DNA of 64,000 nt, from contig CANGJU010000001.1 in NCBI GenBank assembly GCA_947453935.1, positions 11,112 to 75,111 on the forward strand, read 5' to 3'. Below are positions 3,793-54,662 of the stretch, one piece after another. The position numbers and the translations under genes were made by a program. Under the pieces are notes generated by a model that saw only the letters and a program-made list of their open reading frames with translations, made no database searches and had not been told where the DNA came from. Numbering within the stretch: position 1 is the first letter of the stretch; each line of letters opens with the position of its first letter. The DNA is from Bacteroidota bacterium (GTDB taxonomy: Bacteria > Bacteroidota > Bacteroidia > AKYH767-A > OLB10).

Positions 3793-3814
3793 AAATTTAA
3801 ATGCGTTTATAATT

Positions 3815-5464: not shown

Positions 5465-5476
5465 TTATACAAAATA

Positions 5477-7018: not shown

Positions 7019-7039
7019 AATTATTAGATTTTAGATTCT

Positions 7040-7258: not shown

Positions 7259-7379
7259 AAATATAAAATGGATTTTAAAATCCTTTTTGTTGAAGGATAT
7301 AAAGAGGAGATAGTTCCAGATTTTCAAAACAATACTACTTTTGTAAACCCCAAATCATACACTATTCAAACTACCATCT

Positions 7380-7814: not shown

Positions 7815-7841
7815 TAGTTGAGTATTTACTTTTAAAATTTA

Positions 7842-8159
7842 CTAAATCTTTTTTGCTCCTTCAATAATCGCATCTACTACTGCAGGGTCGAGGAGGGTGC
7901 TAGTGTCGCCTAAATTGCTTAAGTCGTTCTCTGCAACTTTTCTTAATATTCTGCGCATGATTTTTCCCGAGCGTGTTTTGGGTAAGCCTGTCACAAATTG
8001 TATTTTGTTGGAGCTCACCAAAGGGAATATCATTACATCAAATTCGTATTTGCTCACTTTAAAAGCGCCAGCAATAGTAATTGGAGGAAGTTTAAACAGC
8101 TTTGTGAGTGGACCGTTGAAAAAAATTGGCTCTGCTGCGTTTTTATATCCTATTGGCAA
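7842..8159 (-). pseudogene. 3' fragment of acetyl-CoA synthetase (duplicated acs remnant)
   Basis: C-terminal 54 residues ([54 protein letters not shown]) identical to the end of the full acs at 20328-22250. Homology stops near 8007. Confidence 0.75.
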
Positions 8160-16605: not shown

Positions 16606-19503
16606 TTATTTCGTGTTGAGTTCTTTTTTACTACCTATATATTGATTTTGATAGTAATATTTAATAAGGAATAAGGAATTAGGGTACTTTAATTTGTCTT
16701 TGCTCCAACTCATTAAAGAGTTTTGGTAAACTAATTTACCTGATATATCAAAAACCTCTAAACGTACAAATTCTTTTTGCATATCATTTAATTGCAATAG
16801 TTGTTCAAGAGTTAATATTTCAGTAACATTAGTAGTTGAAATATTGCTTATTCTTAAATTAAAATTATTGATATGATATTCACGATCAAGTAAGGTGCGG
16901 CTGTTTCTAACTCCTGTTCCACCAATTAATTCATCTGTAATTGCAATTGCTTCTAAGTCTTGTATTTCATTTTCGGTAGGGTCTCTATCTTCTGCAATTA
17001 ATGATAGTGTTATCCTATCCACAATTAGGTTGTTCTCTTCAATTGTATTATTTGAAATCATATTGTTTAATCGATATAAGGCGTCAATAACGGTTTTTTC
17101 ATTGCTTAGTGCTATTGCATCTACATAATTCCCTATATTATCTTGACGATGCAAGTTAATAAAATCTACATAGTTTTGATCTAACGCTTGAAGAGCAGAG
17201 TCATTTGAGATTACTGAGTAAGCAAATACTTTATCTAAATAATGATTTTCTTCTATGTTTTCATCATATTCTAATTCATTATAAATTATTTGGCGAACAC
17301 GTTCATAAATAGCATCTGTTAAAGTGGAGTTTGATTGACCACAGAATGAATTTTGAGCAACATTAGTAATGTGTACAATAAAATTATTAATTGGATTAAC
17401 ACTAATGGATATAATTGGTGAACTGCCAGATAAATACCAACTAACGGCATCTACCGTACCTCCAAATTTAGAAATATTGATTTTAAAAGAGGTAAAAAAG
17501 TTATTATAGGGCATTAAAGGCTTGCCTTGATCGGCTAACTTTGCTTTGCTAAAATAAATACCATTTAAAAACCCTGTTAAAGGAGTAGATGGATCTCCTT
17601 CAAAGTTATTACAATAAATATTTGTGCCAACACAATCATCTTTGATATACAAACCACTACCCATTTTATTTAATTTGTTTTCACTAATAATTGAGTTTCT
17701 TCCACTGCAATTATCTAACTTAATTCCAATCAACTGGTTTATATAATCTTTAGTAGTACTATTTATGGGATTCGTTTGAAAAATATCATTAGAATTTACG
17801 AATATTTGATTCGAATTTTCTAAGTAGATTCCTGCATGATAAGGGTTTTCCGAAATATTAGGTGTTGGTGTATGACTTAAATTAAAACTATTAAACCTTA
17901 TAGGAAACATGCTTGTAGTATCATTTCCTAAACCTTTAATATTGCTAGCATAAATACCCATTCTAGCCGCGTTAAAAGTATTGTTTTGAATATGACCATT
18001 AATGGTAGTAGGGGATACAAATGCTAAGCGAATTGCAACATTTTCTAAATTGCCATATGGTTTTTGAATTTGAAAATAAGTACCAGTATTAAACGTATTG
18101 CTGTCAATTTCTAAAGTAGCTTCAATAAATCTTTTGCAATAAATTGCGCAGTAAAAGCGTGAATCGAAACTGTTTCCAAAAATTTTAATCGTTTTACTTG
18201 AAATATTAAAATTATCTACGCGCACACCACCTAGTGAATTAACATTATTTATGTTGTTTTTATAACAATAAACATTAACATTTTTAAAAGCATTTACACC
18301 ATACTTGCAGTTATTTATTAGATTATTATTGGGTTTTAACAAGTGTCCAAAATTTATTGTTTGTTCTTGGTTTGATGTTCCTTCACAATAAATAGCACTC
18401 CCATTATAAATTCGGGTATTGGTATAAGCGGATATAGGAATTGTATTAACTATAGTAACACGCTCTGGAAGTGTTATTGATCCTCGGATATTAGCAATAC
18501 CAATATTCATATTCTGAATATTAATTTGCATTACATCATTATTTATTTGGTTGTTGAAGTTAGGGTTGTCATATAGATAAAATCCAGCAAAACTTTTGCT
18601 TTGTGGTGTAGTTTGTTGCCCGCAGTAATTGGGTAATAAATTAAAATTGTTGTTTATTGAAATTCCTGGTCCAGTAGAACCGCCAAAATTTAAGTTATTG
18701 CCATTAGGATTTTCAGGTGAATAAACAGCTATGTAATTATCTAAAAATTGACTTGCATTAGGTGATCCATTATTGAAATCACCTGTTATTGTCCCTTTGT
18801 AATAAAGGCCATATTCCGCATCTCTTATTGTACTTCCATCCCTTATTTTAATTGTTGCTTGATCCTGAGCGTGTATACCTTGCCACAAATGCCCACATCC
18901 TGCTTGGATGGTTGAGTTTATTAATCCAAATCCCATATTAGGTATAACATTGATAATTCCACCTTGGTCAACATTTATAATTGTATTGTGAATTTCAAGG
19001 GTTTGATTGACTAATAATTGACCGTGTAGTTCAATTATACTATTTTGATTTGGATATATTAACGGGTCATAGATAAAGGTAGTTCCATTTTGAACGATAT
19101 TAGGTATTTTATCTGGTGTAATGTCAATTAATTGCGGAAGTGAATCATTTTGACAACAAGGTTGTAGGTACAAAGTATCAGTAGCATTACAAGGACTTGT
19201 TTGGTGCAAAACAATCATTGCATAATAAAAAGTTGAACTATTGATTGCAGAATTTGCTGAAAACTGATTTCCTGTTACTGATAAAATACTTGTTGTAATA
19301 GGCGAATCATATACATCATAAGTGGTCAATTCTGCTGAATAAATTCCTGCATTATTATAATTATCAATTGTGTAAATAAATAAGTTTTGAGGACCACACA
19401 AGCTTTGTTTGCCATTAATTTTGGGGTTGCAATTTTGTCCGTTAGCCAAAACGCAATTTAATAAAATGCACCAAAGTGCTAATAAGTAGTTGCTTTTTTT
19501 CAT
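16606..19503 (-). CDS. Large secreted right-handed beta-helix-like protein with T9SS C-terminal domain
   Basis: Probable start is M18 of the track ORF (MKKSNYLLALWCILLNCVLANGQ), 21 nt downstream of the TATATTTG box. The longer 19554 start would overlap the promoter. 8-nt gap to the 384-aa gene. Confidence 0.7.
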   Translation of the reverse strand: MKKSNYLLALWCILLNCVLANGQNCNPKINGKQSLCGPQNLFIYTIDNYNNAGIYSAELTTYDVYDSPITTSILSVTGNQFSANSAINSSTFYYAMIVLHQTSPCNATDTLYLQPCCQNDSLPQLIDITPDKIPNIVQNGTTFIYDPLIYPNQNSIIELHGQLLVNQTLEIHNTIINVDQGGIINVIPNMGFGLINSTIQAGCGHLWQGIHAQDQATIKIRDGSTIRDAEYGLYYKGTITGDFNNGSPNASQFLDNYIAVYSPENPNGNNLNFGGSTGPGISINNNFNLLPNYCGQQTTPQSKSFAGFYLYDNPNFNNQINNDVMQINIQNMNIGIANIRGSITLPERVTIVNTIPISAYTNTRIYNGSAIYCEGTSNQEQTINFGHLLKPNNNLINNCKYGVNAFKNVNVYCYKNNINNVNSLGGVRVDNFNISSKTIKIFGNSFDSRFYCAIYCKRFIEATLEIDSNTFNTGTYFQIQKPYGNLENVAIRLAFVSPTTINGHIQNNTFNAARMGIYASNIKGLGNDTTSMFPIRFNSFNLSHTPTPNISENPYHAGIYLENSNQIFVNSNDIFQTNPINSTTKDYINQLIGIKLDNCSGRNSIISENKLNKMGSGLYIKDDCVGTNIYCNNFEGDPSTPLTGFLNGIYFSKAKLADQGKPLMPYNNFFTSFKINISKFGGTVDAVSWYLSGSSPIISISVNPINNFIVHITNVAQNSFCGQSNSTLTDAIYERVRQIIYNELEYDENIEENHYLDKVFAYSVISNDSALQALDQNYVDFINLHRQDNIGNYVDAIALSNEKTVIDALYRLNNMISNNTIEENNLIVDRITLSLIAEDRDPTENEIQDLEAIAITDELIGGTGVRNSRTLLDREYHINNFNLRISNISTTNVTEILTLEQLLQLNDMQKEFVRLEVFDISGKLVYQNSLMSWSKDKLKYPNSLFLIKYYYQNQYIGSKKELNTK

Positions 19504-19523
19504 GATTTTTAGTTTTAGGTACT

Positions 19524-19742
19524 CAAATATAAAGTGGCAAATAACTGAAATCAATAAGTAAAATTACTTATTTTTTAATCCATTAAAAATGGCAAATAAC
19601 GTTTCTTGATTATTGTCCTTTAAATTAATAATCAGTTATTTATAGACTATTATACTTATATTTTTTGGCTCGATCAATCAAAATTTTACCTTTTTGAAAT
19701 TTTCAAAGGGCTTCAAAAAAACGTCAGATTTTACTTGCCACT
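19524..19742 (-). promoter_or_regulatory. Conserved upstream cassette, copy 2
   Basis: -7 box at 19524-19531 (minus). IR arms at 19533-19543 and 19732-19742. Near-palindrome AATAAGTAAAATTACTTATT at 19553-19572. Confidence 0.6.
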
Positions 19743-19865
19743 GAATTATATAATAAAGACGGAGAACTGCAAGTTGTTTCGCTTCATGGGAATGCATAAA
19801 ACGCTAATTTCAAAACAATCCTACTTTTGTAAACCCCAAATCATACACTATTCACACACCTATCT

Positions 19866-20300
19866 ATGAAATTAAAAACTATCTTACTATTTACCTTTTT
19901 ACTATTATCAAAAAGTATTTTCTCTCAATCTGCATTAAACGAAATAAAAGCTTTTGAACAGAAAAGATATCAAGCTTTAATTAATGCAGATATTGCAACA
20001 ACAACTAAATTGATTTCTCCTGATTTATTATACACGCATTCGAATCTAAACTTTGAAGATAAAGCAGCATATCTCTTTGCATTAACAAGTGGAAAGTATA
20101 AATTTGAAACATTTGAAACGGATAGTACGCAGTATGTTTTTCTGAATAAGAAAACAGTTGTTGCAGCGGGATTAGTCCATATGCAAGGACGTTATAACGA
20201 TACTCCTTATAAATTAGATGGGCGCTTTACCGCAGTGTACACAAAAAAGAAACAGCAATGGCAATTAGCAGCCTGGCAAACGACCAAGAAAGTGAATTGA
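19866..20300 (+). CDS. Secreted SnoaL-like/DUF4440-type small protein
   Basis: Paralog of 7380-7814. Signal peptide present. Confidence 0.55.
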   Translation: MKLKTILLFTFLLLSKSIFSQSALNEIKAFEQKRYQALINADIATTTKLISPDLLYTHSNLNFEDKAAYLFALTSGKYKFETFETDSTQYVFLNKKTVVAAGLVHMQGRYNDTPYKLDGRFTAVYTKKKQQWQLAAWQTTKKVN

Positions 20301-20327
20301 TAGTTGAGCAATTAAATTTTCAATTCG

Positions 20328-22250
20328 CTAAATCTTTTTTGCTCCTTCAATTATCGCATCTACCACTGCAGGATCCAGTAGAGTGCTGGTATCTCCTAAA
20401 TTGCTTAAGTCGTTCTCCGCAACTTTTCTTAATATCCTGCGCATGATTTTTCCTGAGCGTGTTTTCGGTAAGCCTGTCACAAATTGTATTTTGTCGGGCT
20501 TGGCAATAGGACCAATAACTTTGCTTACGACGTCTAAAATTTCTCTTCGTGTTGTGTGTTCATCTTCTGGTAAGTGGTCGCATATAACGTAAGCGTATAT
20601 ACCCTGTCCTTTAATTTCATGCGGGTAACCAATCACCGCCGATTCAATCACGTGAATATGCTCGTTAATGGCATTCTCAACCTCTGCGGTTCCTAGTCGG
20701 TGGCCACTTACATTGATGACATCATCAACACGTCCAATTATCCGGTAATAACCATCGTGGTCGCGTTTGCAACCATCACCTGTAAAATATAAATTCTCGT
20801 ATGTACTGAAATAGGTCGTGCGACATCGCTCATGGTCGCCATAAGTGGTGCGCAGCATACCAGGCCATGGGTACTTAATGCATAAGTTGCCTTCTACATT
20901 ATTGCCTTCAATGATTTTTCCTTCGGCATCTACCAGCACAGGCTGCACGCCCGGAAGTGGTAAGGTAGCAAAGGTCGGTTTAGTAGGAGTGATATTAGCA
21001 AGAGGAGATATCATCACGCCTCCAGTTTCCGTCTGCCACCAGGTATCAACAATGCCGCAATTTCCTTTCCCAATTTTTTCATCGTACCAATGCCATGCTT
21101 CTTCATTAATAGGTTCTCCAACGGAGCCCAATGTTTTTAAGCTTGCTAACGAATACGGAGTAACGAACTCGTCACCTTGTGCCATCAGCGAACGAATAGC
21201 AGTCGGAGCAGTATAAAAAATATTTACTTTGTGTTTATCAATTACATTCCAGAATCTTCCTGCATCAGGATAAGTAGGAATGCCTTCAAACATTAAAGTG
21301 GTGGCACCGTTTAATAAGGGTCCATAAACAATATAAGAATGACCTGTCACCCAGCCGATATCTGCAGTACACCAGTAAATATCACCTGCGTTATATTGAA
21401 ACACATTGGCAAAAGTATAAGCTGCCCAAACCATATAGCCAGCTGTTGTATGCACAACTCCTTTTGGTTTACCTGTAGATCCAGAAGTGTATAAAATAAA
21501 TAACATGTCTTCTGCATCCATCGATTCAGCAGCACATTCATTCTCACAGTCTTTTATTGCATCTTTCCAGTAAACATCTCTTCCTGCTTGCATGTTAATC
21601 TCTGAATTTGTATTCTGAAATACAATTACGGTTTCAACGGAAGAAGTAGAAGCGAGCGCATTGTCTACAATTTCTTTTAAGTTCAATGCTTTTGCTCCTC
21701 TGTAAACACCATCTGCTGTAATGACCATCTTGCAAGTAGCATCATTAATTCTATCTGCTAAACTCTGAGCAGAAAATCCCGCGAACACAATCGAATGAAT
21801 AGCGCCAATTCTAGCGCAGGCTAACATCGCAACAGCTGCTTCGGGTACCATTGGCATATAAATACAAACACGGTCGCCCTTTTTTACTCCAGCATTTTTA
21901 AGCATGTTAGATGCTTTACAAACTGCGTGATACAATTCACGATACGTAAGCGTACATCCCTTGCCGTTAGGGTCGTTGGGTTCCCAAATAATAGCAGGTG
22001 TATTTCCATTTGTATCAAGATGACGGTCGAGGCAGTTTTCTGTGATGTTTAAAACGCCACCTTCAAACCATTTTACATCAAACGATCTAAAATCCCAGTT
22101 CAATACGTTATCCCAACGTTTCTTCCACACAAAATTCTCCGCTATATCATTCCAGAAGGATATAGGATAATTAACGCTTTTTTCATAGGCCTGCTGATAG
22201 GCTTCCATCGACTCAATACGTGTATTCATGCTAGTTGATTTAAAAGTCAA
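20328..22250 (-). CDS. acs: Acetyl-CoA synthetase
   Basis: 640 aa with canonical AMP-binding and ACS motifs (YTSGSTGKPKGV, TYRELYHAVCK...). Confidence 0.9.
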   Translation of the reverse strand: MTFKSTSMNTRIESMEAYQQAYEKSVNYPISFWNDIAENFVWKKRWDNVLNWDFRSFDVKWFEGGVLNITENCLDRHLDTNGNTPAIIWEPNDPNGKGCTLTYRELYHAVCKASNMLKNAGVKKGDRVCIYMPMVPEAAVAMLACARIGAIHSIVFAGFSAQSLADRINDATCKMVITADGVYRGAKALNLKEIVDNALASTSSVETVIVFQNTNSEINMQAGRDVYWKDAIKDCENECAAESMDAEDMLFILYTSGSTGKPKGVVHTTAGYMVWAAYTFANVFQYNAGDIYWCTADIGWVTGHSYIVYGPLLNGATTLMFEGIPTYPDAGRFWNVIDKHKVNIFYTAPTAIRSLMAQGDEFVTPYSLASLKTLGSVGEPINEEAWHWYDEKIGKGNCGIVDTWWQTETGGVMISPLANITPTKPTFATLPLPGVQPVLVDAEGKIIEGNNVEGNLCIKYPWPGMLRTTYGDHERCRTTYFSTYENLYFTGDGCKRDHDGYYRIIGRVDDVINVSGHRLGTAEVENAINEHIHVIESAVIGYPHEIKGQGIYAYVICDHLPEDEHTTRREILDVVSKVIGPIAKPDKIQFVTGLPKTRSGKIMRRILRKVAENDLSNLGDTSTLLDPAVVDAIIEGAKKI

Positions 22251-26626: not shown

Positions 26627-28054
26627 TTATTGTTCTAAATTGTTTTCAGAATTAATTAGTTGTAAAGTATTATCAACTAATTGAACTTTTTGATTAAGCT
26701 TGATTGAATTATTATCGCCTGTAATTATGCTTACATCAATGCCTCTATTCTTGAATTCATCTACGAGCAAGATTATATACTCAAAGCGCGCACTTGCTGA
26801 AGCTCTGGAATTGACTTCCCGATTAAAAGAATCTACTAAGTTCTGAGCATCGCAGCTCGAAAGAATTTTCTTCCATTCATTTCTACGTTTTTCACCTCCA
26901 AAGTCTTTATCGAAATATTCTATTAGCTGGTTAAGTTTCTCAGTATCTAAATTTTCCCATGGGTAATCAAGATTTCCAAAATGTCCGTGAACTGCGGTTG
27001 GACCATAAATCGGACGCTTTAATTGAAGTGCGTTGATTATTCCCTTCGGACTTAAATCAAATACCGACCTAACGGCAAGGGCTAACCGAGAATCTACATG
27101 ATGTAAACTGGTTCCATGGGTATCAACATGAACTGATAATGGTTGATTATGTCCAATAGCATACGATAACTGAATGGTACATTCTTTCGCAAGTCCTGAA
27201 GCAACAATTAATTTTGCAATCCAGCGAGCCATGTACGCTGCTGATCGATCTACTTTACTTGGATCTTTGCCTGAGAATGCGCCACCACCATGCGGACATT
27301 TTCCTCCATACGTATCAACAATAATTTTTCTTCCTGTTAATCCGGTATCTCCATGTGGACCACCAATGGTGAATCTTCCAGAAGGATTAATGAAATATTC
27401 CGTTTCTGATTCTCCTTTGTAGTTTGCAATTACAGGATTAATGATTTCACGAATTATAAATTCGTGTAAAAATTCTTGAGAGATATCGGGAGTGTGCTGT
27501 GCTGAAAAAACTACTTTACTAACTCCTATAGGCGAGTTGAGTTTATAATCGACAGTTACCTGCGATTTTGCATCAGGAAGTAAGAATGGATAGTTGCCAG
27601 TGTCACGTAGCTCCTGATGTTTGCGAATAAGTTCATGTGCAAGATAAATTGGGAGCGGCATAAGGTTCGGACCTTCAGAAGTTGCGTAACCGAACATGAG
27701 TCCTTGATCACCTGCACCACCATCAATAACGCTATCGTTAATCTCTTTACTTTGTTGATGTAAGAGGTTTTGATAGAAGGCCGTTTTCCAATTAAAGCCA
27801 GTTGATGAATCGTTATATCCGATTCGCTCTAACACTTCCTTCGCAATCGCAATTGGATCAACTACAGCAGAGGAGGTGACTTCTCCTGCAATGGTTAAAT
27901 GGTTGGTGGTGATTAAACATTCGCATGCAACTTTTGCATCCGGGTCTTTTGCTAAATAAGCATCTAAGATAGCGTCTGAAATTTGATCAGCCACTTTGTC
28001 TGGGTGTCCTGCCGACACCGATTCGCTTGTGAACGAATGATTGAATAGATTCAT
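26627..28054 (-). CDS. metK: S-adenosylmethionine synthetase with ~85-aa C-terminal extension
   Basis: N-terminus FTSESVSAGHPDKVADQISDAILDA and GGPHGDTGLTGRKIIVDTYGG motif. Core ends near YPWENLD at about residue 370, but the ORF continues to 475 aa. Confidence 0.85.
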   Translation of the reverse strand: MNLFNHSFTSESVSAGHPDKVADQISDAILDAYLAKDPDAKVACECLITTNHLTIAGEVTSSAVVDPIAIAKEVLERIGYNDSSTGFNWKTAFYQNLLHQQSKEINDSVIDGGAGDQGLMFGYATSEGPNLMPLPIYLAHELIRKHQELRDTGNYPFLLPDAKSQVTVDYKLNSPIGVSKVVFSAQHTPDISQEFLHEFIIREIINPVIANYKGESETEYFINPSGRFTIGGPHGDTGLTGRKIIVDTYGGKCPHGGGAFSGKDPSKVDRSAAYMARWIAKLIVASGLAKECTIQLSYAIGHNQPLSVHVDTHGTSLHHVDSRLALAVRSVFDLSPKGIINALQLKRPIYGPTAVHGHFGNLDYPWENLDTEKLNQLIEYFDKDFGGEKRRNEWKKILSSCDAQNLVDSFNREVNSRASASARFEYIILLVDEFKNRGIDVSIITGDNNSIKLNQKVQLVDNTLQLINSENNLEQ

Positions 28055-28139
28055 AGTATGAAAGAATTAAAGATTAATTTCTAACTCAATACATACATCA
28101 AAAAGAAGCGAAGTGGATATCCTGTTATATTTTGACTGA

Positions 28140-28360
28140 ACGTCCACATCGCTTCACCACCGTGGCGCGGATACGCTCGGTTGGTATTATAGTCGGAACT
28201 ATAATTCTTGATGTATTAAAAAATAAAGAACAAATTGTATTCAGCAATTTGTAAATTAAACGAGAGGAGGGAGGGTTTATTGTGCAAAGCGCTTTTTTGA
28301 CTCCTGGTCCGCATCGTTTTACCACCGTTGCATCGTCCGCTCGGTTGGTATCATATTTAC
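28140..28360. repeat. Two copies of a REP-like hairpin element (ACCACCG...CGGTTGGTAT)
   Basis: Copies at ~28156-28190 and ~28320-28354 share conserved stem arms with variable loops and conserved flanks (CGATG-YGGAC...AGTCAAAA on the minus strand). Confidence 0.5.
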
Positions 28361-28470: not shown

Positions 28471-28917
28471 TCAGGAAAAATACTTTTTATAAAATTCAAT
28501 TTGGTGGGCGACTAATAAATCGTTTAATTCATTTAGCGAATTCTTTTTCTTGTGATGCTGCTCTTGATTTTCAACATAGCGTATTAGTCGTTCTTTTTCT
28601 TTAACTGTATAGGTGAAGGCTCCGTAACCTGATTGCCATCCATTAAATTTTTTGAAGAGCTTTTGTTCTTTGATAAAATGGGTGCTTGATAGTTTAATGT
28701 CTTTTACCAACGCAGCCAAGGAAACGGATGGATGTAGGTCGCATACAATGTGCAGGTGATCTTCAACCCCGTTAACACAATGTGTGAAGCATTTTTTATT
28801 TCGGATTACAGTTGCAATATATGCGAACAATTCTTGGCGTTTATCGGCGCTTAATGTTTTTTCTCTTCGCTTCGTCGCAAAAACTATCTGGTAAATGATT
28901 TGAGTATAGGTCGTCAT
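28471..28917 (-). CDS. tnpA: IS200/IS605-family HUH (Y1) transposase, RAYT-like
   Basis: 148 aa with HuH motif (DHLHIV) and C-terminal catalytic Tyr region (GYGAFTY). Flanked on both sides by hairpin repeat arrays. Confidence 0.65.
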   Translation of the reverse strand: MTTYTQIIYQIVFATKRREKTLSADKRQELFAYIATVIRNKKCFTHCVNGVEDHLHIVCDLHPSVSLAALVKDIKLSSTHFIKEQKLFKKFNGWQSGYGAFTYTVKEKERLIRYVENQEQHHKKKNSLNELNDLLVAHQIEFYKKYFS

Positions 28918-29402: not shown

Positions 29403-30302
29403 ATGCAATTTAGTTTATTAAGCAGGTGTTTAGGACATACAGGTGGTGTGTATGATTTAATTAAAATTTCGGATAGGGAATTTTTATCAGCGTCGGGCGA
29501 TCGATTAGTAGTGTCTTGGAATATTGATAATCCGGAGCATGGAAATCTAATTGCAAGAGCAGCTGATAGTATTTATGCAATCTGTTTTTTGTCGGATACG
29601 AATGAGCTTTTAATTGGACAGGCAAAAGGCGAAATTCATGTCATAGATTTATCGACTAATCAGGAAAAGAAATTATTAAAGATAAATGACAAAGGCGTGT
29701 TTTCTATTTTAGAAAACAAATTGAAAAACAAAATTTACGTTTTAGGTGGTGATGGAGTTTTATCTGTTTTAAATTCAAAAGATTATTCATTGATTGCTAA
29801 AAAGAAGATTTCTACAATGAAGCTTCGTTCTGTTTTGTTTGATGAAGCATCTAACAAACTTTATTTCGGGTGTGGTGAAGGTGTTGTAACTGTTTTTGAT
29901 GATGATTCAATGGAACTGTTATTAAGCAATCAAATTTCTAATAACGGATTTTCAATTAATACAATGATGGATTTTTCGGAAGAACATATTATATGTGGAG
30001 GAAGAGACGCGCATTTACGATGGATACAAAAAGGTGACTTATCAATTGTTGATGCAGTGCCTGCTCATAACTATGCAATCTATAAAATCAGTTTTTCTCC
30101 CGATAAAAATTTATTTGCTACTGCAAGTCGCGATAAAACTTTGAAGATTTGGGACGCAAAAACAAAGCAGATTATTCAGCGCATTGAGCAAGCAAGCGAC
30201 GGACATCTTAATTCAGTAAATACACTTTTATGGATGGATGATCACACTCTTATAAGTGCAGGTGATGATCGTTCAATTAATATCTGGAGAAAAAATAATT
30301 AA
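29403..30302 (+). CDS. WD40-repeat protein
   Basis: Repeated WD motifs (TLKIWDAKT, SINIWRKN), about 7 blades. Confidence 0.7.
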   Translation: MQFSLLSRCLGHTGGVYDLIKISDREFLSASGDRLVVSWNIDNPEHGNLIARAADSIYAICFLSDTNELLIGQAKGEIHVIDLSTNQEKKLLKINDKGVFSILENKLKNKIYVLGGDGVLSVLNSKDYSLIAKKKISTMKLRSVLFDEASNKLYFGCGEGVVTVFDDDSMELLLSNQISNNGFSINTMMDFSEEHIICGGRDAHLRWIQKGDLSIVDAVPAHNYAIYKISFSPDKNLFATASRDKTLKIWDAKTKQIIQRIEQASDGHLNSVNTLLWMDDHTLISAGDDRSINIWRKNN

Positions 30303-31450
30303 GCAGGAATGCTAATCTTTACAGTAGTTCCAATTCCTAATAGCGATTCGAGGGTAATAGTTCCTCCTAATTTTGAAACCATTTCCTTGCAGATATATAA
30401 ACCGAGACCAGTTCCTTCTACGCTGCTTGTTGCTCGATAAAACATATCAAAAATTTTAGGTAGACTTCTTTCGCTTATCCCGATGCCATTATCTTGAATC
30501 GTTATTTCAAGAAATGAATTTTGCTTTGAAACAATTATCTTAACAAAACAATTATCATTATTTGACTTTCTGTATTTTACTGAATTGCTAATAATGTTTT
30601 TCAGTATGGTGGTCAAACGAAATTTATCACTTGAAATAGCAGGAGCAGTATTGAATTCAATATCAAAATTGATGTTTGCTGAGTGTTTTAAGTCCTCTGT
30701 AATCTGCCTTAGTATCACTGCTAAGTCTAAATCTGTATTTTGAATATCAAATCTGGCATTGCGACTATAATCTAAAATTTCAACAATGGAATTATCTAAT
30801 CGATTTATGGAATTAATAATCATTTGTAAAAGTGATATGGTAGATTCGCTTAATTCCTCTCGTTGTTTTATAATATCTATTATGCCGTGAATAGATAATA
30901 ACGGAGAGCGTAAATCGTGCGATACACTGTAAACAAATCTGTCAAGCTCCGCATTTGCTTTTTTGAGTTCATCGTTTTTAGCGGCGAGCATTTCATTTGA
31001 ATGATTCGAATCTTCTACTGCCATTTGCTGTACTCGCAAATTTTGTATCATATCGATAGTCGAATCATGCACAGCAAAATCATTGATCTTTAATCCGAGT
31101 TTTTCAAAATCTTTTTCATTCAAAATCCAAGGTGATCCACAAAAGAGTAATGATTTATTTTCTTCGTGAAAGACAAACTCTCCTTTTAAACGAAACGTAA
31201 ATTCGTTCGATTTGCCTGCTAAAATGAAAATTTGATTTTCATATAATCGAATAGAATCAATTTGATATTTGATGCCAAGGCCGGGGCGTACGAATGAAAA
31301 ATACTTGGTAAAAGGCATACCCACACAATCGTCACCGATTATTTTTTTTAAGCTGTTACCCGCCTCTGTAATTATTAATTCTTGATTAAGAAAAAAGTGA
31401 AATGGGAACAATCTGCTTATTAGTAAATTGCTCTCTTTAGTGCTAATCAT
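30299..31450 (-). CDS. H-NOX-associated sensor histidine kinase (HNOBA-HisKA-HATPase_c), cytoplasmic
   Basis: N-terminal region FRLKGEFVFHEENKSLLFCGSPWILNEKDFEKLGLKINDFAVHDSTIDMIQNL aligns with the sGC HNOBA domain. H-box SHDLRSP. G-box GTGLGL. No TM segments. Confidence 0.8.
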   Translation of the reverse strand: MISTKESNLLISRLFPFHFFLNQELIITEAGNSLKKIIGDDCVGMPFTKYFSFVRPGLGIKYQIDSIRLYENQIFILAGKSNEFTFRLKGEFVFHEENKSLLFCGSPWILNEKDFEKLGLKINDFAVHDSTIDMIQNLRVQQMAVEDSNHSNEMLAAKNDELKKANAELDRFVYSVSHDLRSPLLSIHGIIDIIKQREELSESTISLLQMIINSINRLDNSIVEILDYSRNARFDIQNTDLDLAVILRQITEDLKHSANINFDIEFNTAPAISSDKFRLTTILKNIISNSVKYRKSNNDNCFVKIIVSKQNSFLEITIQDNGIGISERSLPKIFDMFYRATSSVEGTGLGLYICKEMVSKLGGTITLESLLGIGTTVKISIPA

Positions 31451-31995
31451 TGTATAATATCGATTTCAAAAATATCATGCTCATCTCCATTTCTACGATC
31501 AGCTACAAGTGCAACATTAATTGGAGTATTATAAAGTTCACCTAACCCCTGTATAAGTCCGAACATAAAGTCTGTTAGTCCTTGTCTTGTTGAATAATAA
31601 TGCAACATCAGTTTACTAGCAGTCGCTTTTTCAACGATAAATTCCGGCGGTTTAATATCGGAGTAGATAAGCATTACACGGCTATGAAAATTAGGAAGGT
31701 TAACGATAAAGTCGATGAAGTTATCTCCACCAGATTTCATCAACGGCCCATATTTTTCATTGCCTACTTTTATTATCCAGTATTTGCCAAACGTTTTTAA
31801 TACATCGGAAAGTGGGATATCTAATATTTCAGATGCGGATATTGCCAGATTGAATGTGATGCTATCATCGTAAATTTCATTACTTAAAAAAGCCTCTTCT
31901 GCAACACCTGCTTTTTGTTTTATTTTATTCCAATTATCGCTTCCAAAGTTGTCGATAACTAATCCTTGGATGGCTTGATTTACTAAACCGTACAT
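31447..31995 (-). CDS. hnoX: H-NOX (heme-nitric oxide/oxygen binding) domain protein
   Basis: MYGLVNQAIQGLVIDNFGSDNWNKIK...IYDDS closely resembles the sGC beta1 H-NOX N-terminus. Proximal His at residue 104 (NFHSRV). YxSxR motif (HYYSTRQ). 4-nt overlap with the kinase gene. Confidence 0.85.
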   Translation of the reverse strand: MYGLVNQAIQGLVIDNFGSDNWNKIKQKAGVAEEAFLSNEIYDDSITFNLAISASEILDIPLSDVLKTFGKYWIIKVGNEKYGPLMKSGGDNFIDFIVNLPNFHSRVMLIYSDIKPPEFIVEKATASKLMLHYYSTRQGLTDFMFGLIQGLGELYNTPINVALVADRRNGDEHDIFEIDIIQ

Positions 31996-32132
31996 AATAC
32001 TTAATGTTAATTAATTCGGGAAGATAGTAAAATCTAATGTATTTTGTGTATGAAAAAACAAACTGAATAATTCTATTAAGAAATAAAACAATAATGCAAT
32101 AATTACAATAAGATGTTTCATAAATTTGTTTA

Positions 32133-43221: not shown

Positions 43222-45432
43222 ATGAAAAAACGCATATTGGCTTTACAAATTGTACTGTGCTCCCTTTTCACTTATTCGCAAGGGCAGCAGGTACATGTTC
43301 AGATCTCCAGTGGGGATAATCTGGAGGGTGCCGTTGTGGTTTTTCAATCTTTATCAGATGGTAAGCAGGAGGCAAGGTTTACCAATAATCAAGGTTTCGC
43401 CACAATTCCGAAGTTTAGTTTGCCTATTTACTACAAAGTTACTTACCTGGGTTTTGAATCGTTTGCAGATACTATTCATAGTTATACTTCCAAGAAAAAA
43501 GTTTCGCTTGTGGCTTCGCCCATGAATTTTGATCAGGTAACGATAACAGGTAATTATACTCCTGGATTTAAATCCAATTCAATTTATAATATCGATGTAA
43601 TCTCAAATAAAGAGATTGAACAACGTGCAGTTTATAATGTGCGTGATTTGATGACCCAGCAGTTGAATGTGCAGCTTTCCAATGATGGTGTGCTCGGAAG
43701 CAGCATTTCTTTGCAAGGTGTGGGTGGACAACATGTGAAGTTTTTAATTGATGGTGTTCCTGTTATTGGTCGCCAGAATGGGAATGTCGATATCAGTCAG
43801 TTGAACTTAGCCAACATCGATCACATAGAAATGGTGAAAGGACCAATGTCGGTTTTATATGGTAGCGATGCTTTAGGTGGTGTGATTAATCTTATTACCA
43901 AATCAAATAAAGAAGAACGATGGAATGGCAATGCAACAGGTTATTATGAATCAGTTGGAAATTACAATACGGATATAAGTCTTGGAAAAGGATTCAAAAA
44001 TTCAAGTTTGTATTTTAATGCTGGTCGTAACTTTTTTGATGGATGGAGTCCGAATGATTCGTTGAGAAGTCAGCAGTGGAATCCAAAAGAACAATACTTC
44101 GCAAATTTAAAGTACAACAAAACTGTAAATGGCTATAAGATGACATTGCAGTATAACTTCAGCAACGAAACTGTTTTTAATAAAGGCGATATTACAATTA
44201 CACCGTATCAAGCTTATGCGTTTGACCAGGATTTTCAAACATCACGTAACCAGATTTTATTTACAACGGATAAAAAACTGAATGATAAATCTTCCTGGCA
44301 GTTTACCGCAGCATATAACCACTACCGTTATATTAAGAATGCTTATCGTAAAAATCTGGTCGATTTGTCATCACTGTTAACAGAAGATCCTTCTGATGAT
44401 GATACAACTATTTTTCAATCGTATTTTACCCGCACTGTTTATAATCATTCATTATCGAAAAAGGTTTCTTTGTTATCAGGTTTAGAGCTGAATCAAGAAA
44501 CAGCGCAAGGAAAAAAAATTGATAATGCTATACACCAGATAACAGACGCTGCTTTGTTTGCTTGTGTTGATTATAATCCAACTAAAAAATTAACAATTCG
44601 TTCTTCGCTGCGTGGAATCTATAATTCACAATATAAAGCCCCATTGGTTCCATCGTTAAACGCGTTGTATAAAATTTCTGATGTGTATGCGTTGCGTTTT
44701 AGCTGGAGTAAAGGCTTTAGAGCACCATCTATCAAAGAGCAATATTTGTATTTTGTAGATGCATCGCATAACGTACGTGGTAATCCTAATTTGAAAGCGG
44801 AGAATTCAGATAACTTTAATTTTTCTTTTAATGTAAAATATGTGAAGTCAAAATCAGTAATAGAAATTGAACCTGCATTATTTTATAATCATATACGCAA
44901 TCAGATTTCATTGGCTCAGGCGGATAAGTACACGAGCTTATTCACTTATATTAATCTCGATGAATTTACAGCGATGGGTGGAGAGGTTCAGTTGCGTTAT
45001 CTCGTAAATAGTTTTGAAATTAAATCCGGAATTTCTTATACGGGTACAAGTGCAACCTACAATGGAAATATCAAACAAGAAGATCAGGCCTGGTATTTTG
45101 AAACCACTTCATCGGCATCTTACACGATTGAAAAATGGGAAACGTCAATCGCATTATTTTGTAAGTACACCGGAGTAAAGCCTGTTTATTTACTTGAAAG
45201 TGATAATACAATTTCACTTCAGCAAAATGCAGCTTATACGTTAATGGATTTTACAGCATCCAAATTTTTCTTCAAAAAGAAATTAAATATTTCAGCAGGA
45301 TTGAAAAACATATTAGATGTTCAGAATGTTAATGCTGCAATGAATAATGGCGTGCATGCTGGAAATAATAACGGAACAATGATGGTTGGTACTGGGCGCT
45401 CGTCTTTCGTAAAACTTAATTACAAATTCTAA
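43222..45432 (+). CDS. TonB-dependent outer-membrane receptor
   Basis: Signal peptide, carboxypeptidase-regulatory-like N-domain, plug domain, C-terminal beta-barrel ending in KF. Confidence 0.8.
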   Translation: MKKRILALQIVLCSLFTYSQGQQVHVQISSGDNLEGAVVVFQSLSDGKQEARFTNNQGFATIPKFSLPIYYKVTYLGFESFADTIHSYTSKKKVSLVASPMNFDQVTITGNYTPGFKSNSIYNIDVISNKEIEQRAVYNVRDLMTQQLNVQLSNDGVLGSSISLQGVGGQHVKFLIDGVPVIGRQNGNVDISQLNLANIDHIEMVKGPMSVLYGSDALGGVINLITKSNKEERWNGNATGYYESVGNYNTDISLGKGFKNSSLYFNAGRNFFDGWSPNDSLRSQQWNPKEQYFANLKYNKTVNGYKMTLQYNFSNETVFNKGDITITPYQAYAFDQDFQTSRNQILFTTDKKLNDKSSWQFTAAYNHYRYIKNAYRKNLVDLSSLLTEDPSDDDTTIFQSYFTRTVYNHSLSKKVSLLSGLELNQETAQGKKIDNAIHQITDAALFACVDYNPTKKLTIRSSLRGIYNSQYKAPLVPSLNALYKISDVYALRFSWSKGFRAPSIKEQYLYFVDASHNVRGNPNLKAENSDNFNFSFNVKYVKSKSVIEIEPALFYNHIRNQISLAQADKYTSLFTYINLDEFTAMGGEVQLRYLVNSFEIKSGISYTGTSATYNGNIKQEDQAWYFETTSSASYTIEKWETSIALFCKYTGVKPVYLLESDNTISLQQNAAYTLMDFTASKFFFKKKLNISAGLKNILDVQNVNAAMNNGVHAGNNNGTMMVGTGRSSFVKLNYKF

Positions 45433-46457
45433 TGAGAAGTCTTGGGATATTGATTTTGTTTTTGGCTACGTTGACTTCTTGTATGAAGGAAGATGACGCG
45501 ATAACATTGCCTGCACCAGGACCTGTTAAACAAGGTACGGCTAACATGGGATTGAATTATGAAAATCAGGTTTACTTCGATTTAGAATCTGGTAATGCTG
45601 TTGTTCGTCCTTATAAAACGTACGACTTAGCTTTTGAAGCATCTAAAAATGGATGCCGTATTTATTTGAACAGTGCAAAATTTATGTTTGCTTGTAATAC
45701 GCAATCGTATAATGTGTCTGCCGCAGATACTGTAGGACATGCCTGGACGTTAGATTGCGAACAATTATTAGAAGATACATTAGCACTTACTAAATACTGG
45801 CAGGATGTTAATTTTTCTTCGCAAGGAAGTAAGGTGTTTGCAGTAGATCGTGGTAAGCTGGAACATACTGGTCCTGCCCGTTGGAGAAAGTTTAAAATAT
45901 TATCAGTAGATAGTTTAAAATACACTATCTGTTTTAGTAACTACGATAATTCATCGATGGATACCGTTGATATTATGAAAGACGAAAATTATTCGTTGAT
46001 GTACTTTTCGTTCGATACGCCGAATCAGTTAGTGCAACAAGCTCCACCAAAAGATCAATGGGATTTTGTTTTTACAAAGTACACCCATGTCTTTTTTGAA
46101 TATGATGTGTTATCTCCATTCAGATATTATTTTGTTACAGGAGTTGTACAAAATATCTGGAACAACACTGAGGTCTTGCGCTTTCAGAAAGATTCCATGC
46201 CTGCAAATGTTCCGTATTTGCCAATAGAGCAATTTAATTATTCGCAGGTGTCGAATTTTGCTTTTTCAAATTACGCTAATACGATTGGCTATAATTGGAA
46301 GTATTATAACTTCAGTGATGCACATTATCATATTTATCCCGACTTATATTTCGTTGTGAAATCAAATAACGGATTTTACTACACTGTAAAGATGGTCGAC
46401 TTTTATGACACTGCAGGTAACAAAGGCCTAGTCACATTTCAAACTCAAAGAATATAA
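45432..46457 (+). CDS. Lipoprotein, HmuY-like accessory protein candidate
   Basis: Lipobox LATLTSC. Start overlaps the receptor stop. Shares motifs (IGYNWKYYNF, YFVVK...VKMVDF) with the next gene. Confidence 0.5.
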   Translation: MRSLGILILFLATLTSCMKEDDAITLPAPGPVKQGTANMGLNYENQVYFDLESGNAVVRPYKTYDLAFEASKNGCRIYLNSAKFMFACNTQSYNVSAADTVGHAWTLDCEQLLEDTLALTKYWQDVNFSSQGSKVFAVDRGKLEHTGPARWRKFKILSVDSLKYTICFSNYDNSSMDTVDIMKDENYSLMYFSFDTPNQLVQQAPPKDQWDFVFTKYTHVFFEYDVLSPFRYYFVTGVVQNIWNNTEVLRFQKDSMPANVPYLPIEQFNYSQVSNFAFSNYANTIGYNWKYYNFSDAHYHIYPDLYFVVKSNNGFYYTVKMVDFYDTAGNKGLVTFQTQRI

Positions 46458-46490
46458 TCAAATCAAAAAAAATAAAAACAAATAAACCAT

Positions 46491-47750
46491 ATGAAATCAA
46501 TTTTACAAAAGCTATCATTAGCAATTCTTGCAGGAGTGTTTACATTATCTGTAAAAGCACAAACTACGGATACGGTTACTGTTAATCCTGGTTACACTAA
46601 TCAAACGTTTTACAGTTTTGCAACAGGAACTGTAAGTTCTGTTTCCAATTTAAATTGGGATTTAGCATTTCAACTTCGTGGATATGCTGCATCAATTTTA
46701 ATTAATTCGAAAAATAATGTGCGTTTGTATAATGCGAATAAATCAGCTGCTGATTGGTCAACTATGACAGTTGCTGATACAACAGGAATTTTAAGCAGTC
46801 CAACAAATGAGTTATTTAATTCTGATACTTCTTGGAATTTTGGTGCATTCAACAGAACGAATAATCCTGCAGATATGTTCGACTTGGGCTGGGGGAATTA
46901 TGATTTTATGACGCATGCTATTACAGGCGACTCTGTTTACTTTATTAAATTATCAAGCGGCGTTTACAAAAAGTTATGCATCGTTTCACTTGCAAATAGC
47001 ATCTACGATTTTAAGTGGGCCGATTTAGATGGAAGCAACGAAACATTAGGAGCTATCAATAAAACAACGTATGCTGGAAAGAACTTCGTTTATTTCTCAA
47101 TCTCGAACAATCAAACTATCGATCGTGAGCCTGCTTACAATGCATGGGATTTATCATTCGCTCAGTATTTAACTACAACTCCAATTGTATACAAGGTTTC
47201 AGGTGTATTAACAAATGATTCAGTATTTGCAGTGAAAGCATATCCGGTAGATGTAAATACTGTTTCTTCTGCATCTTATACATTCAATAACGCAATCAAT
47301 AATATTGGTTACGATTGGAAAGCATTTAACATGACTACTAATATGTACGACATCGCTGATTCAACTGTTTACTTTGTACAAGATCGTCAGGGAACAATCT
47401 GGAAAATGATCTTCACTGGTTTCGGTGGTGCTGCAAATGGTAATTTCTATTTCTCGAAAGGAACTACCACGGGTATTGGTCAAATAGAAAATTCCTCAAT
47501 CAAAACATTTGATGCTGCTCCGAATCCTGCACATGGTACTACTCGTTTGATTTTATCTTCTGAAAAAGCAGGCGATGCTACGATGCAGGTGATTTCAATG
47601 AACGGAATGTTAATGTCATCTGATGTAATTCAATTAAACAACGGATTACAATCAGTAGATTTAACGTTAGAGTCATTAACACCAGGAATTTATCAGGTAT
47701 TAATTACAATGGGTAACGAGCGTCAAATTACGCGTATCGTTGTTCAATAA
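46491..47750 (+). CDS. Secreted paralog of the preceding lipoprotein, with T9SS C-terminal domain
   Basis: Signal peptide. Motifs IGYDWKAFN and YFVQDRQGTIWKMIFTGF. Por tail. Confidence 0.6.
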   Translation: MKSILQKLSLAILAGVFTLSVKAQTTDTVTVNPGYTNQTFYSFATGTVSSVSNLNWDLAFQLRGYAASILINSKNNVRLYNANKSAADWSTMTVADTTGILSSPTNELFNSDTSWNFGAFNRTNNPADMFDLGWGNYDFMTHAITGDSVYFIKLSSGVYKKLCIVSLANSIYDFKWADLDGSNETLGAINKTTYAGKNFVYFSISNNQTIDREPAYNAWDLSFAQYLTTTPIVYKVSGVLTNDSVFAVKAYPVDVNTVSSASYTFNNAINNIGYDWKAFNMTTNMYDIADSTVYFVQDRQGTIWKMIFTGFGGAANGNFYFSKGTTTGIGQIENSSIKTFDAAPNPAHGTTRLILSSEKAGDATMQVISMNGMLMSSDVIQLNNGLQSVDLTLESLTPGIYQVLITMGNERQITRIVVQ

Positions 47751-51157: not shown

Positions 51158-51373
51158 AGTGGCAAGTAAAATTTGACGTTTTTTGGGCCTGTTAAAATAT
51201 TTTTTGGAAATTTATTTTAGGCATTTTGCTCGAAATGGCCACTTGATTATTATCCTATTATACTAATATACAGCCATTTAAATTCAATATTTTAGAAAAA
51301 AGCCACCATTTTTAAAAACTTCAAAATAAGTAATTTTACTTATTGTTTTCAGTTATTTGCCACTTTATATTTG
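51158..51373 (+). promoter_or_regulatory. Conserved upstream cassette, copy 3
   Basis: IR arms at 51158-51168 and 51354-51364. Palindrome AATAAGTAATTTTACTTATT at 51325-51344. -7 box TATATTTG at 51366-51373, 20 nt before the ATG. Confidence 0.6.
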
Positions 51374-51393
51374 AGCACTAAAAATCTTAAAAT

Positions 51394-52935: not shown

Positions 52936-52944
52936 GGGGTCTTT

Positions 52945-54594: not shown

Positions 54595-54607
54595 ATATAA
54601 TATTTCA

Positions 54608-54632
54608 AAAGGGGCCAAGAGCCCCTTTTTTT
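54608..54632 (+). terminator. Rho-independent terminator
   Basis: AGGGGCCAAGAGCCCCT plus T7. Confidence 0.7.
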
Positions 54633-54662
54633 GTATAATAATTTTAGTGGTTTGCTAATTAA

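Follow-up and report, generated by a model that had tools for sequence, protein, structure and literature searches.

A predicted NO-sensing pair of H-NOX protein and HNOBA histidine kinase, with no receiver encoded nearby, in an uncultured freshwater member of the Bacteroidota

The genome of an uncultured freshwater member of the Bacteroidota carries two overlapping genes that encode a predicted haem NO sensor of the H-NOX (haem NO-binding) family and its partner histidine kinase. The pair raises the question of which gas it senses, how the signal might cross from one polypeptide to the other, and to what a kinase with no receiver beside it would pass its phosphoryl group. The locus was analysed within the whole available stretch of DNA, 64 kb in length and referred to here as the window, and the features on which the argument rests are listed below by their positions in it.

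31447..31995, minus strand: stand-alone H-NOX gene, 182 aa (Pfam HNOB, PDB match, AF2 model)
31684..31686, minus strand: codon of H104, predicted proximal haem-iron ligand (aligned with Nostoc H-NOX H105; invariant in 26 sequences)
31585..31599, minus strand: Y133-Y-S135-T-R137, the YxSxR haem-propionate motif (Y133, S135 and R137 invariant in alignment A1)
31567..31569, minus strand: codon of F143 at the hydrophobic distal-pocket position (aligned with Nostoc M144; predicts O2 exclusion)
31447..31450, minus strand: ATGA overlap of H-NOX stop and kinase start (sequence)
30299..31450, minus strand: soluble histidine kinase gene, 383 aa, with HNOBA/PAS, signalling helix, HisKA and HATPase_c (Pfam, PDB matches, AF2 model)
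31076..31438, minus strand: HNOBA (H-NOXA) PAS-like domain, residues ~5-125 (PDB matches, AF2 model)
30941..31063, minus strand: signalling helix/coiled-coil linker, residues ~130-170 (AF2 model, HNOBA match)
30752..30946, minus strand: HisKA/DHp domain, residues 169-233 (Pfam HisKA, HK853 alignment)
30917-30919, minus strand: codon of the phospho-acceptor H178 in the H-box SHDLRSPL, which begins at residue 177 (invariant in alignment A2)
30305..30628, minus strand: HATPase_c catalytic domain, residues 275-382 (Pfam, motifs)
30299..30302, no strand: TTAA in which the stop codons of the convergent kinase (minus) and WD40 (plus) genes overlap (sequence)
31996..32132, no strand: 137 bp between the divergent H-NOX and ruvB genes, presumed to hold the promoter of the two-gene operon

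The initial annotation had described the product of 31447-31995 as an H-NOX protein of 182 aa, and the open reading frame, its coordinates and its minus-strand orientation are all borne out. [quoted passage not shown] The AF2 model (pLDDT 90) superposes on 2o09 with a TM score of 0.95 and an rmsd of 1.3 A. The proximal histidine and the YxSxR motif that had been recognised at the outset are both present, and an alignment of 26 sequences finds H104, Y133, S135 and R137 invariant, along with P117, W73 and G70, P117 being the conserved proline that distorts the haem.

The same annotation had left the ligand as NO or O2, and of these the NO type can be kept. The distal position F143, which we take to be equivalent to Y140 of Tt H-NOX and I145 of sGC beta1, is occupied in the alignment by phenylalanine in Bacteroidota, by methionine in cyanobacteria and by tyrosine in 0 of the 26 relatives, and it is a tyrosine at this position of Tt H-NOX that stabilises O2. 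This pattern points to a protein of the NO- and CO-binding, O2-excluding type and predicts that the window H-NOX is of the NO-selective sGC/cyanobacterial subtype. A sensor of O2 or of redox state, as are the H-NOX domains found in obligate anaerobes, would still be compatible with the Pfam match, as the family takes in both NO- and O2-binding members, but the distal phenylalanine and an identity of only 18% to the O2-binding Tt H-NOX, compared with 41% to that of Nostoc, make such a sensor very improbable.

The kinase is as clearly identified as its neighbour. It was annotated as soluble and no transmembrane segment is found in it, the maximum Kyte-Doolittle value over a 19-residue window being 1.2. 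The assignment of its N-terminal ~170 aa to HNOBA is upheld by a match to Pfam HNOBA (PF07701) of 96.3 bits (E 2.4e-27; curated cut-off 23.4 bits) that reaches residue 171, and HisKA (39.6 bits) and HATPase_c (89.8 bits) follow as had been described; for both proteins the Pfam matches lie many orders of magnitude past chance. Residues 10-122 match the H-NOXA domain of the Nostoc punctiforme STHK (2p04/2p08, E 8e-12), and the PAS-CC region matches residues 212-354 of sGC beta1 and residues 205-388 of Manduca beta1. In the AF2 model (pLDDT 80) residues 5-118 adopt a PAS-like alpha/beta fold, followed by a single helix, residues 130-197, that bears H178, after which come the second DHp helix and the CA domain. 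The linker thus runs on into DHp helix 1 after a conserved 'HD' hinge (H128-D129), of which H128 is invariant and D129 nearly so in the kinase alignment A2.

The N-box (285), the G1 box DNGIG (320), the F-box FDMFYR (334) and the G2 box GTGLGL (346) are all in place, and N285, N289, D320, G322, G324, G346, G348 and G350 are invariant in A2. With its catalytic motifs all intact, the protein is by its sequence a HisKA-class (class I) sensor histidine kinase. A Foldseek search of the PDB with the full kinase model returned mostly kinase cores and PAS/LOV kinases, and nothing on HNOBA beyond the 2p04 sequence match; among NCBIfam models none names either protein, the kinase hitting generic kinase equivalogs only, far below their cut-offs. 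The kinase sequence is 99% identical to the entry P0001, and the nearest genome bins are CANFIN01, JBJOND01 and CAINEC01. Nothing contradicts the identity of the two genes.

The 4-nt overlap that had been reported between the genes is confirmed as ATGA at 31447-31450, and a similarly tight junction is seen in relatives of the locus, an arrangement that marks the two genes as a probable translationally coupled, two-gene operon. Its promoter presumably lies in the 137-bp region shared with ruvB, where the Bacteroidota -7 motif TAnnTTTG was matched only with one mismatch; a sigma-70 promoter scan found fewer sites than in shuffled controls and is uninformative. At the other end lies a gene for a WD40 beta-propeller protein (29403-30302) on the opposite strand, convergent with the kinase gene. 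The two stop codons overlap in TTAA, so that there is no room here for a downstream receiver gene, a receiver remnant or a terminator. The WD40 gene is the convergent neighbour in all loci of the window lineage that reach far enough beyond the kinase gene to include what follows it, and is not found at any module locus outside this narrow lineage. Elsewhere in the window, haem-uptake genes (a TonB receptor and an HmuY-like protein) are found at 43.2-47.8 kb; as these lie 11 kb off with unrelated genes between, no functional link to the pair is claimed.

The pairing, though real, was known before from cyanobacteria and is nothing new in principle. H-NOX genes adjoining genes for HNOBA-domain kinases were recognised already when the domains were defined, and the structures of Nostoc H-NOX and N. 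punctiforme H-NOXA, which come from an operon of the same kind, date from 2007-2008. In Nostoc sp. PCC 7120, as in the window, a stand-alone H-NOX gene (Alr2278) is directly upstream of and overlaps that of an HNOBA kinase, and both H-NOX proteins have the proximal histidine, the YxSxR motif, the Pro-Pro and the equivalent of Trp74, although the distal residue differs (Phe in the window, Met in cyanobacteria). In work of Ma et al. in 2007, Nostoc H-NOX reportedly bound NO and CO and did not bind O2. The cyanobacterial kinases are hybrids of 1157-1296 aa that carry inserted GAF or PAS domains and one or two receivers fused to them, in some cases also an Hpt, whereas the window kinase, from another phylum, has 383 aa, runs straight from HNOBA to HisKA and has no receiver. 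The two halves of such a system have both been solved from Nostoc, as the H-NOX and as the H-NOXA domain of the N. punctiforme kinase, and Nostoc H-NOX structures with NO and CO bound are mentioned (PMC2576301). Three founding papers are those of Iyer et al. 2003 (BMC Genomics 4:5), Ma et al. 2008 (JBC 283:1167) and Plate & Marletta 2013; what is said here of this background draws in part on citations in PMC2576301 and PMC2828450.

A survey of related loci overturns the suggestion in the initial annotation that the two-gene combination is uncommon. In 76/76 evaluable loci of the H-NOX clade, a set that spans Bacteroidota and cyanobacteria and includes the cultured Flammeovirga agarivorans and Nostoc-type cyanobacteria, H-NOX is followed after no more than 200 nt by the start of an HNOBA kinase gene; H-NOX and HNOBA kinase on two genes is the bacterial rule. 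The window pair is its smallest form, with HNOBA leading directly to HisKA and no receiver, and what is particular to it is this minimal architecture together with a receiver-less lineage. The further remark that such systems are little characterised in Bacteroidota appears true, as a literature search found no paper on an H-NOX/HNOBA-kinase pair in the phylum.

Two more distant systems are also relevant. In animal sGC beta1, H-NOX, PAS/H-NOXA and coiled coil follow one another, and all three are homologous to parts of the window pair, with 34% identity and a TM score of ~0.9 between the human sGC beta1 H-NOX domain and the window H-NOX and with conservation of the HD hinge. In the window, by contrast with sGC, H-NOX is encoded as a polypeptide of its own, a HisKA/HATPase kinase takes the place of the class III cyclase as output, and the protein presumably forms a homodimer where sGC is an alpha/beta heterodimer. 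The proteobacterial H-NOX/HnoK systems of Shewanella oneidensis, Vibrio cholerae and Silicibacter sp. TrichCH4B likewise consist of a stand-alone H-NOX beside a cytoplasmic kinase, which is often an orphan with its regulators elsewhere in the genome. Their H-NOX proteins, that of Shewanella included, are only ~20% identical to the window H-NOX, and their kinase outputs are c-di-GMP enzymes; no GGDEF, EAL or HD-GYP gene is found within the 64 kb window. To our knowledge the proteobacterial H-NOX-associated kinases have no HNOBA/PAS domain.

On this evidence we consider the pair to be a translationally coupled two-gene NO-sensing module of the cyanobacterial/sGC-like type, acting by the mechanism set out here, with a probability of roughly 80%. 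Five elements of that mechanism are ones that we infer, namely haem and NO binding, the contact between H-NOX and kinase, the direction in which NO regulates the kinase, which regulator receives the signal and what the output is. Ferrous haem would be held by H104 of the H-NOX, with its propionates bound by Y133, S135 and R137, and the hydrophobic distal pocket formed by F143 and W73 would admit NO (and CO) but not O2. The H-NOX would dock non-covalently on the HNOBA/PAS domain and signalling helix of the kinase, and NO binding would cause a conformational change in the H-NOX that is relayed through the PAS domain and the long helix (130-197) to the DHp bundle, where autophosphorylation at H178 would be altered. 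The phosphoryl group would then pass to a response regulator whose gene lies in another part of the genome, unlinked to the pair.

The sign of this regulation is most likely inhibitory, by precedent, as NO-bound H-NOX inhibits every H-NOX-associated kinase tested so far (PMC4436077; PMC8738867). That precedent rests on proteobacterial kinases, since the literature search turned up no pair of H-NOX and HNOBA kinase that had been studied biochemically. In sGC, which is also laid out as H-NOX, PAS and coiled coil, NO activates the output. An sGC-like polarity, in which H-NOX with NO bound would free or straighten the PAS-coiled-coil unit and so activate kinase autophosphorylation, is a possible though less favoured alternative; it gains from the homology of the kinase N-terminus to the sGC PAS-CC, the H128-D129 hinge included, and from the closer identity of the H-NOX to human sGC beta1 than to the Shewanella protein that provides the precedent for inhibition. 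On the other side stand the uniform inhibition of the kinases tested and the difference in output, a DHp bundle in place of a cyclase dimer, to which the coupling geometry of sGC need not carry over. How H-NOX communicates with PAS domain and coiled coil is the central mechanistic question for sGC, a drug target, and a soluble bacterial pair of 182 and 383 aa, in which kinase activity is simple to read out, would serve conveniently to model that relay.

The initial annotation was also right that no response regulator is adjacent, and the result extends to the whole 64 kb window: searches with E. coli CheY (phmmer), with three lineage-specific receivers from locus L011, with a seven-sequence receiver HMM and with Pfam on all open reading frames of at least 140 aa gave only noise (E > 0.3). 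The window therefore holds neither a receiver fused to the kinase nor one encoded nearby, by which a two-component system would be recognised. This orphan status is specific to the lineage. A receiver is fused or adjacent in 41/47 evaluable loci, and the 6 of the 47 without one all belong to the window lineage, which is the only sampled lineage lacking it.

The comparison is sharpest with the sister modules in Bacteroidota (loci L008-L011, L094-L100 and L081 of Flammeovirga agarivorans), which share the order of H-NOX then HNOBA kinase and whose H-NOX proteins are 52-67% identical to that of the window. The minimal HNOBA-HisKA-HATPase architecture also recurs there, in L008-L011, L094-L097, L099 and L100, but unlike the window every sister locus long enough to judge has a receiver, either as a stand-alone protein of 128-143 aa directly downstream (often also upstream) that has no output domain, or fused, or as an NtrC-type regulator upstream. 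The adjacent stand-alone receiver is probably ancestral, kept in the sister lineages and missing in that of the window. The RuvB and WD40 flanks of the window occur in none of the sister modules. A simple deletion of the receiver was sought by synteny with the nearest receiver-bearing relatives, with which the window has no flanking genes in common, so that the event of receiver loss is not reconstructable.

It might be thought that a pair deprived of its adjacent response regulator has stopped signalling and is drifting towards pseudogenes, since the window lineage alone among those sampled has no fused or adjacent receiver and none occurs in 64 kb. The two genes, however, show the marks of a working module. 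Among the 12 loci of the window lineage both open reading frames are intact wherever the locus is complete, even at 72-82% kinase identity, and dN/dS between these genomes is 0.03-0.06 for H-NOX, 0.05-0.125 for the kinase and ~0.12 for the WD40 gene, figures that are approximate because dS has reached or nearly reached saturation (values of ~1 and above). Strong purifying selection on the H-NOX and kinase genes is indicated by these values, and together with the conservation of all haem-binding and catalytic residues it already largely refutes the idea of a decaying remnant, which we regard as extremely improbable. Orphan H-NOX kinases with distant regulators are, besides, the norm in Proteobacteria (PMC4436077). 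The persistence of the pair indicates that NO sensing is kept up in uncultured lake and river Bacteroidota, and it offers a natural comparison, with the same module design in Bacteroidota and cyanobacteria and with an abundant freshwater lineage that has lost the linked receiver. Loss of the receiver while both genes remain under strong selection makes this a tractable case of how orphan kinases find partners.

Transfer to an unlinked response regulator, the route preferred above, may be set against two others. The kinase might act with no conventional receiver at all, either through the convergent WD40 protein or by serving a paralogous pathway solely as phosphatase or sink. The WD40 gene is an invariable neighbour in the window lineage and is itself conserved, and some sister modules have as neighbours a second HNOBA kinase and a FIST(NosP-like)/PAS-kinase/receiver module; the kinase core of that FIST module is closely paralogous, which makes cross-talk plausible. 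The WD40 gene is, however, on the opposite strand, and its absence from module loci outside the narrow lineage means that its conservation is explicable by recent common ancestry alone, while the canonical H-box and DHp domain kept by the kinase indicate ordinary His-to-Asp transfer; output of this kind is improbable.

A second route is also unlikely, if somewhat easier to entertain: the minimal kinase, once detached from its ancestral receiver, might feed the NO signal into another pathway, by way of the receiver of a paralogous FIST(NosP-like)/PAS-kinase module or through a partner that is no receiver, such as the WD40 protein. Were this true, the pair would be a two-component system rewired through receiver loss, and its two proteins, 565 aa in all, would form the smallest natural surrogate of the sGC relay of H-NOX, PAS and coiled coil.

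The H-NOX protein and its partner kinase are encoded by two overlapping minus-strand genes at the coordinates reported in the initial annotation, with a WD40 gene converging on the kinase gene:

31447–31995, minus strand: H-NOX gene, 182 aa (open reading frame and Pfam HNOB)
30299–31450, minus strand: HNOBA histidine kinase gene, 383 aa (open reading frame and Pfam HNOBA, HisKA and HATPase_c)
29403–30302, plus strand: WD40 beta-propeller gene, 299 aa, sharing TTAA between its stop codon and that of the kinase gene

The H-NOX stop codon and the kinase start codon have an ATGA tetranucleotide in common, and the two genes are translationally coupled. Both signature domains score far above their Pfam cut-offs (HNOB, 161.3 bits against 25.5, E = 2.4e-47, profile positions 1–161 of 163; HNOBA, 96.3 bits against 23.4), and the original observation is confirmed at a significance far beyond chance. 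NCBIfam offers no dedicated model for either of the two proteins. On one flank ruvB is divergent from the pair across a 137-bp spacer, and no promoter of the pair was identified by a sigma-70 scan and a search for the Bacteroidota −7 motif. The rest of the window is unremarkable Bacteroidota chromosome in which T9SS cargo genes are numerous, and, judging by where its closest relatives come from, the host belongs to an uncultured freshwater lineage of Bacteroidota.

The nearest solved structure to the H-NOX protein by sequence is Alr2278 of Nostoc sp. PCC 7120 (E = 1e-45, residues 1–178 aligned), followed by human and Manduca sGC beta1 (E = 1e-30 to 1e-27), with Kordia, Shewanella and Tt-type proteins far more distant in the PDB sequence search. 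An AlphaFold2 model made from a 26-sequence alignment (mean pLDDT 90.2) superposes on 2o09 with a TM score of 0.95, an rmsd of 1.3 Å and 41% identity. This outcome counters the structural ground for refutation named in the initial annotation. To human sGC beta1 the protein is 34% identical, to the Shewanella oneidensis protein ~20%, to the O2-binding Tt H-NOX 18% and to that of Kordia algicida 26–27%, the one H-NOX solved from Bacteroidota, which is a distant relative. In the residue alignment of 22 Bacteroidota and four cyanobacterial sequences, the proximal histidine H104 and the Y133-x-S135-x-R137 motif named at the outset are present and invariant, as are P117, W73 and G70. The distal-pocket position matching Nostoc M144, which we take to be equivalent to I145 of sGC beta1 and Y140 of Tt, is Phe143 in the window protein, and in this column every Bacteroidota sequence has Phe and every cyanobacterial one Met, with Tyr in 0/26. 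This argues that the protein belongs to a predicted NO/CO-binding, O2-excluding type, and of the proposed 'NO/O2 sensor' the NO part stands while the O2 part does not. Every testable feature of the NO-selective H-NOX proteins is found in it.

The kinase has the predicted order of an HNOBA N-terminus followed by HisKA (39.6 bits) and HATPase_c (89.8 bits), which is borne out by matches to solved structures. Residues 10–122 match the Nostoc punctiforme STHK H-NOXA/PAS crystal structures 2p04/2p08 (E = 8e-12), the same stretch also matches the sGC beta1 PAS–coiled-coil (residues 212–354; Manduca beta1, 205–388), and residues 160–382 match HK853 (E = 2e-32). In the AlphaFold2 model (pLDDT 80), a PAS-like alpha/beta domain at residues 5–118 is linked to DHp helix 1 by one unbroken helix, residues 130–197, which bears H178; DHp helix 2 (202–233) and the CA domain (239–382) follow. 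All five kinase boxes are present (H-box SHDLRSPL at 177, N-box 285, G1 320, F-box 334, G2 346) and invariant among 29 homologues, in which H128 of the H128–D129 hinge preceding the long helix is likewise invariant and D129 nearly so. No transmembrane segment was found in the 383 residues, in agreement with the description of the kinase as soluble. HNOBA is the only sensor domain of this soluble class I kinase, which is complete and has every testable feature of HNOBA/H-NOXA proteins and HisKA-class kinases.

The generality of the pairing was assessed in 91 distinct loci with an H-NOX of this clade, drawn from species-representative genomes, metagenome contigs and exact look-ups of distant homologues, among the best 80 matches of each scan, and scored by HMMs for H-NOX, HNOBA, kinase core and receiver. 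An HNOBA reading frame begins at most 200 nt after H-NOX in 76/76 of the listed loci that extend 450 nt or more past that gene, a figure that holds for this clade only as the sample leans towards relatives of the query. Partners include a 1077-aa HNOBA-PAS-kinase with fused receivers in cultured Flammeovirga agarivorans, a 513-aa kinase in a Bacteroidetes MAG (receiver, H-NOX, kinase), a 902-aa hybrid kinase after an NtrC-type regulator and H-NOX, and, in two Nostoc-type cyanobacteria, a 1157–1296-aa HNOBA-GAF-kinase-receiver(-Hpt) hybrid overlapped by H-NOX. The Nostoc H-NOX derives 'from a histidine kinase operon', and the H-NOXA domain of the N. punctiforme kinase is a dimeric PAS fold (PMC2576301). 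Within this clade, then, a split over two genes is the rule, and the arrangement is not, as had been supposed, uncommon. The window pair and the Nostoc operon are systems of one kind; the window pair differs in its minimal kinase (383 aa, compared with over 1100 aa), its want of a receiver and its host phylum. We found no paper biochemically characterising any H-NOX/HNOBA-kinase pair, nor one on any H-NOX signalling pathway in Bacteroidota.

A linked response regulator is the one expected feature that the pair lacks. Searches of the 64-kb window found neither a receiver domain nor a second kinase, nor any Hpt, GGDEF, EAL or HD-GYP gene, so the kinase is an orphan, as first proposed, at least at the scale of 30 kb either side. 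Among the matches listed are 47 loci in which the kinase is complete and flanked on each side by 450 nt or more; a receiver is present in 41 (36 fused or directly downstream, five upstream only), and the other six (L001–L004, L006 and L093) are, without exception, closely related to the window, with H-NOX 84–90% and kinase 72–82% identical and genes in the same QueG-RuvB / H-NOX-kinase / WD40 order. In the nearest other lineages the minimal kinase architecture is identical (H-NOX 62–67%, kinase 44–51% identical to the window's) and a stand-alone 128–143-aa receiver lies 12–30 nt past the kinase; these lineages have no flanking genes in common with the window. Approximate dN/dS values, with dS at or near saturation, are 0.03–0.06 for H-NOX and 0.05–0.125 for the kinase in the receiver-less lineage, compared with ~0.12 for WD40 and ~0.015 for RuvB. 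Such strong purifying selection on both genes indicates a functional module, not a relic, and the pair illustrates how a conserved module can lose its receiver in nature. The regulator that carries the output must have its gene elsewhere in the genome; in Shewanella and Silicibacter the cognate regulators are likewise orphans, found by phosphotransfer profiling (PMC4436077).

The convergent WD40 gene, sole conserved neighbour on the kinase side, is kept in every window-lineage locus long enough to show it and absent from all other loci of the module; its adjacency is probably just inherited synteny. In the sister lineages (L011:4050–14839; also L008–L010, L094, L095 and L097), a FIST_N+FIST_C (NosP-like)/PAS-kinase/receiver module directly precedes the H-NOX/HNOBA-kinase/receiver module, and ~4 kb past the latter lies a second HNOBA-kinase/receiver pair without its own H-NOX gene. 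This cluster could be a composite of two putative NO-sensor types and three paralogous kinase-receiver pairs. The stand-alone receivers adjoining the sister modules have no output domain.

The domains, the residues for haem ligation and catalysis, the translational coupling and the constant adjacency of H-NOX to an HNOBA kinase are established, and a signalling route may be proposed. Ferrous haem held by H104 would bind NO, the H-NOX would dock on the PAS/signalling-helix unit of the kinase, as in sGC, and a conformational change would travel down the 130–197 helix to the DHp domain and alter autophosphorylation of H178. Alongside the receiver loss, the chief value of the pair is that it offers a compact model of how sGC relays a signal from H-NOX through PAS to the coiled coil. 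All H-NOX-associated kinases tested are inhibited by NO-bound H-NOX (PMC4436077; PMC8738867), and by analogy the window kinase would be too. An opposite, sGC-like polarity, with NO-bound H-NOX activating the kinase, draws on the homology of the sensor half to sGC and not to proteobacterial kinases, but in the face of that precedent is the less likely of the two, and inhibition is the sign we favour.

Several other features were seen in the window:

26627–28219, minus strand: metK, 475 aa, with three SAM-synthetase domains ending near residue 367
28118–28219, upstream of metK: SAM-I/IV riboswitch (Rfam RF01725, 51.5 bits)
28471–28917, minus strand: gene for an IS200/IS605-type Y1 transposase of 148 aa (Y1_Tnp, 76 bits in Pfam), with the WD40 gene and metK on either side
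43222–47750, plus strand: TonB-dependent receptor gene, then a pair of HmuY-like genes, of which one encodes a T9SS sorting tail
48475–50967, plus strand: fusion of a Mur-ligase (MurF-like) region to a complete alanine racemase with both N and C domains, 830 aa

The C-terminal extension of MetK, ~100 aa, has no Pfam match. The transposase gene occupies the same site in the related loci L004 and L006 and is absent from L005 and L093, so its presence at this site varies between related genomes. The TonB/HmuY-like genes look like a haem-uptake locus, ~11 kb from the haem-dependent H-NOX, with no functional link claimed. A diverged inverted duplication (3705–7090 and 51323–54694; 75% identity over 3.4 kb) holds a pair of 513-aa and 549-aa genes, the 549-aa copies having a T9SS sorting tail, and its copies bracket ~44 kb with the H-NOX locus inside. 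A direct duplication (6950–8011 and 19435–20497; 82.6% over 1.08 kb) includes two 144-aa DUF4440 genes, and the 8–20 kb region between its repeats has lower G+C (0.29–0.32) and encodes very large T9SS/SprB-repeat proteins.
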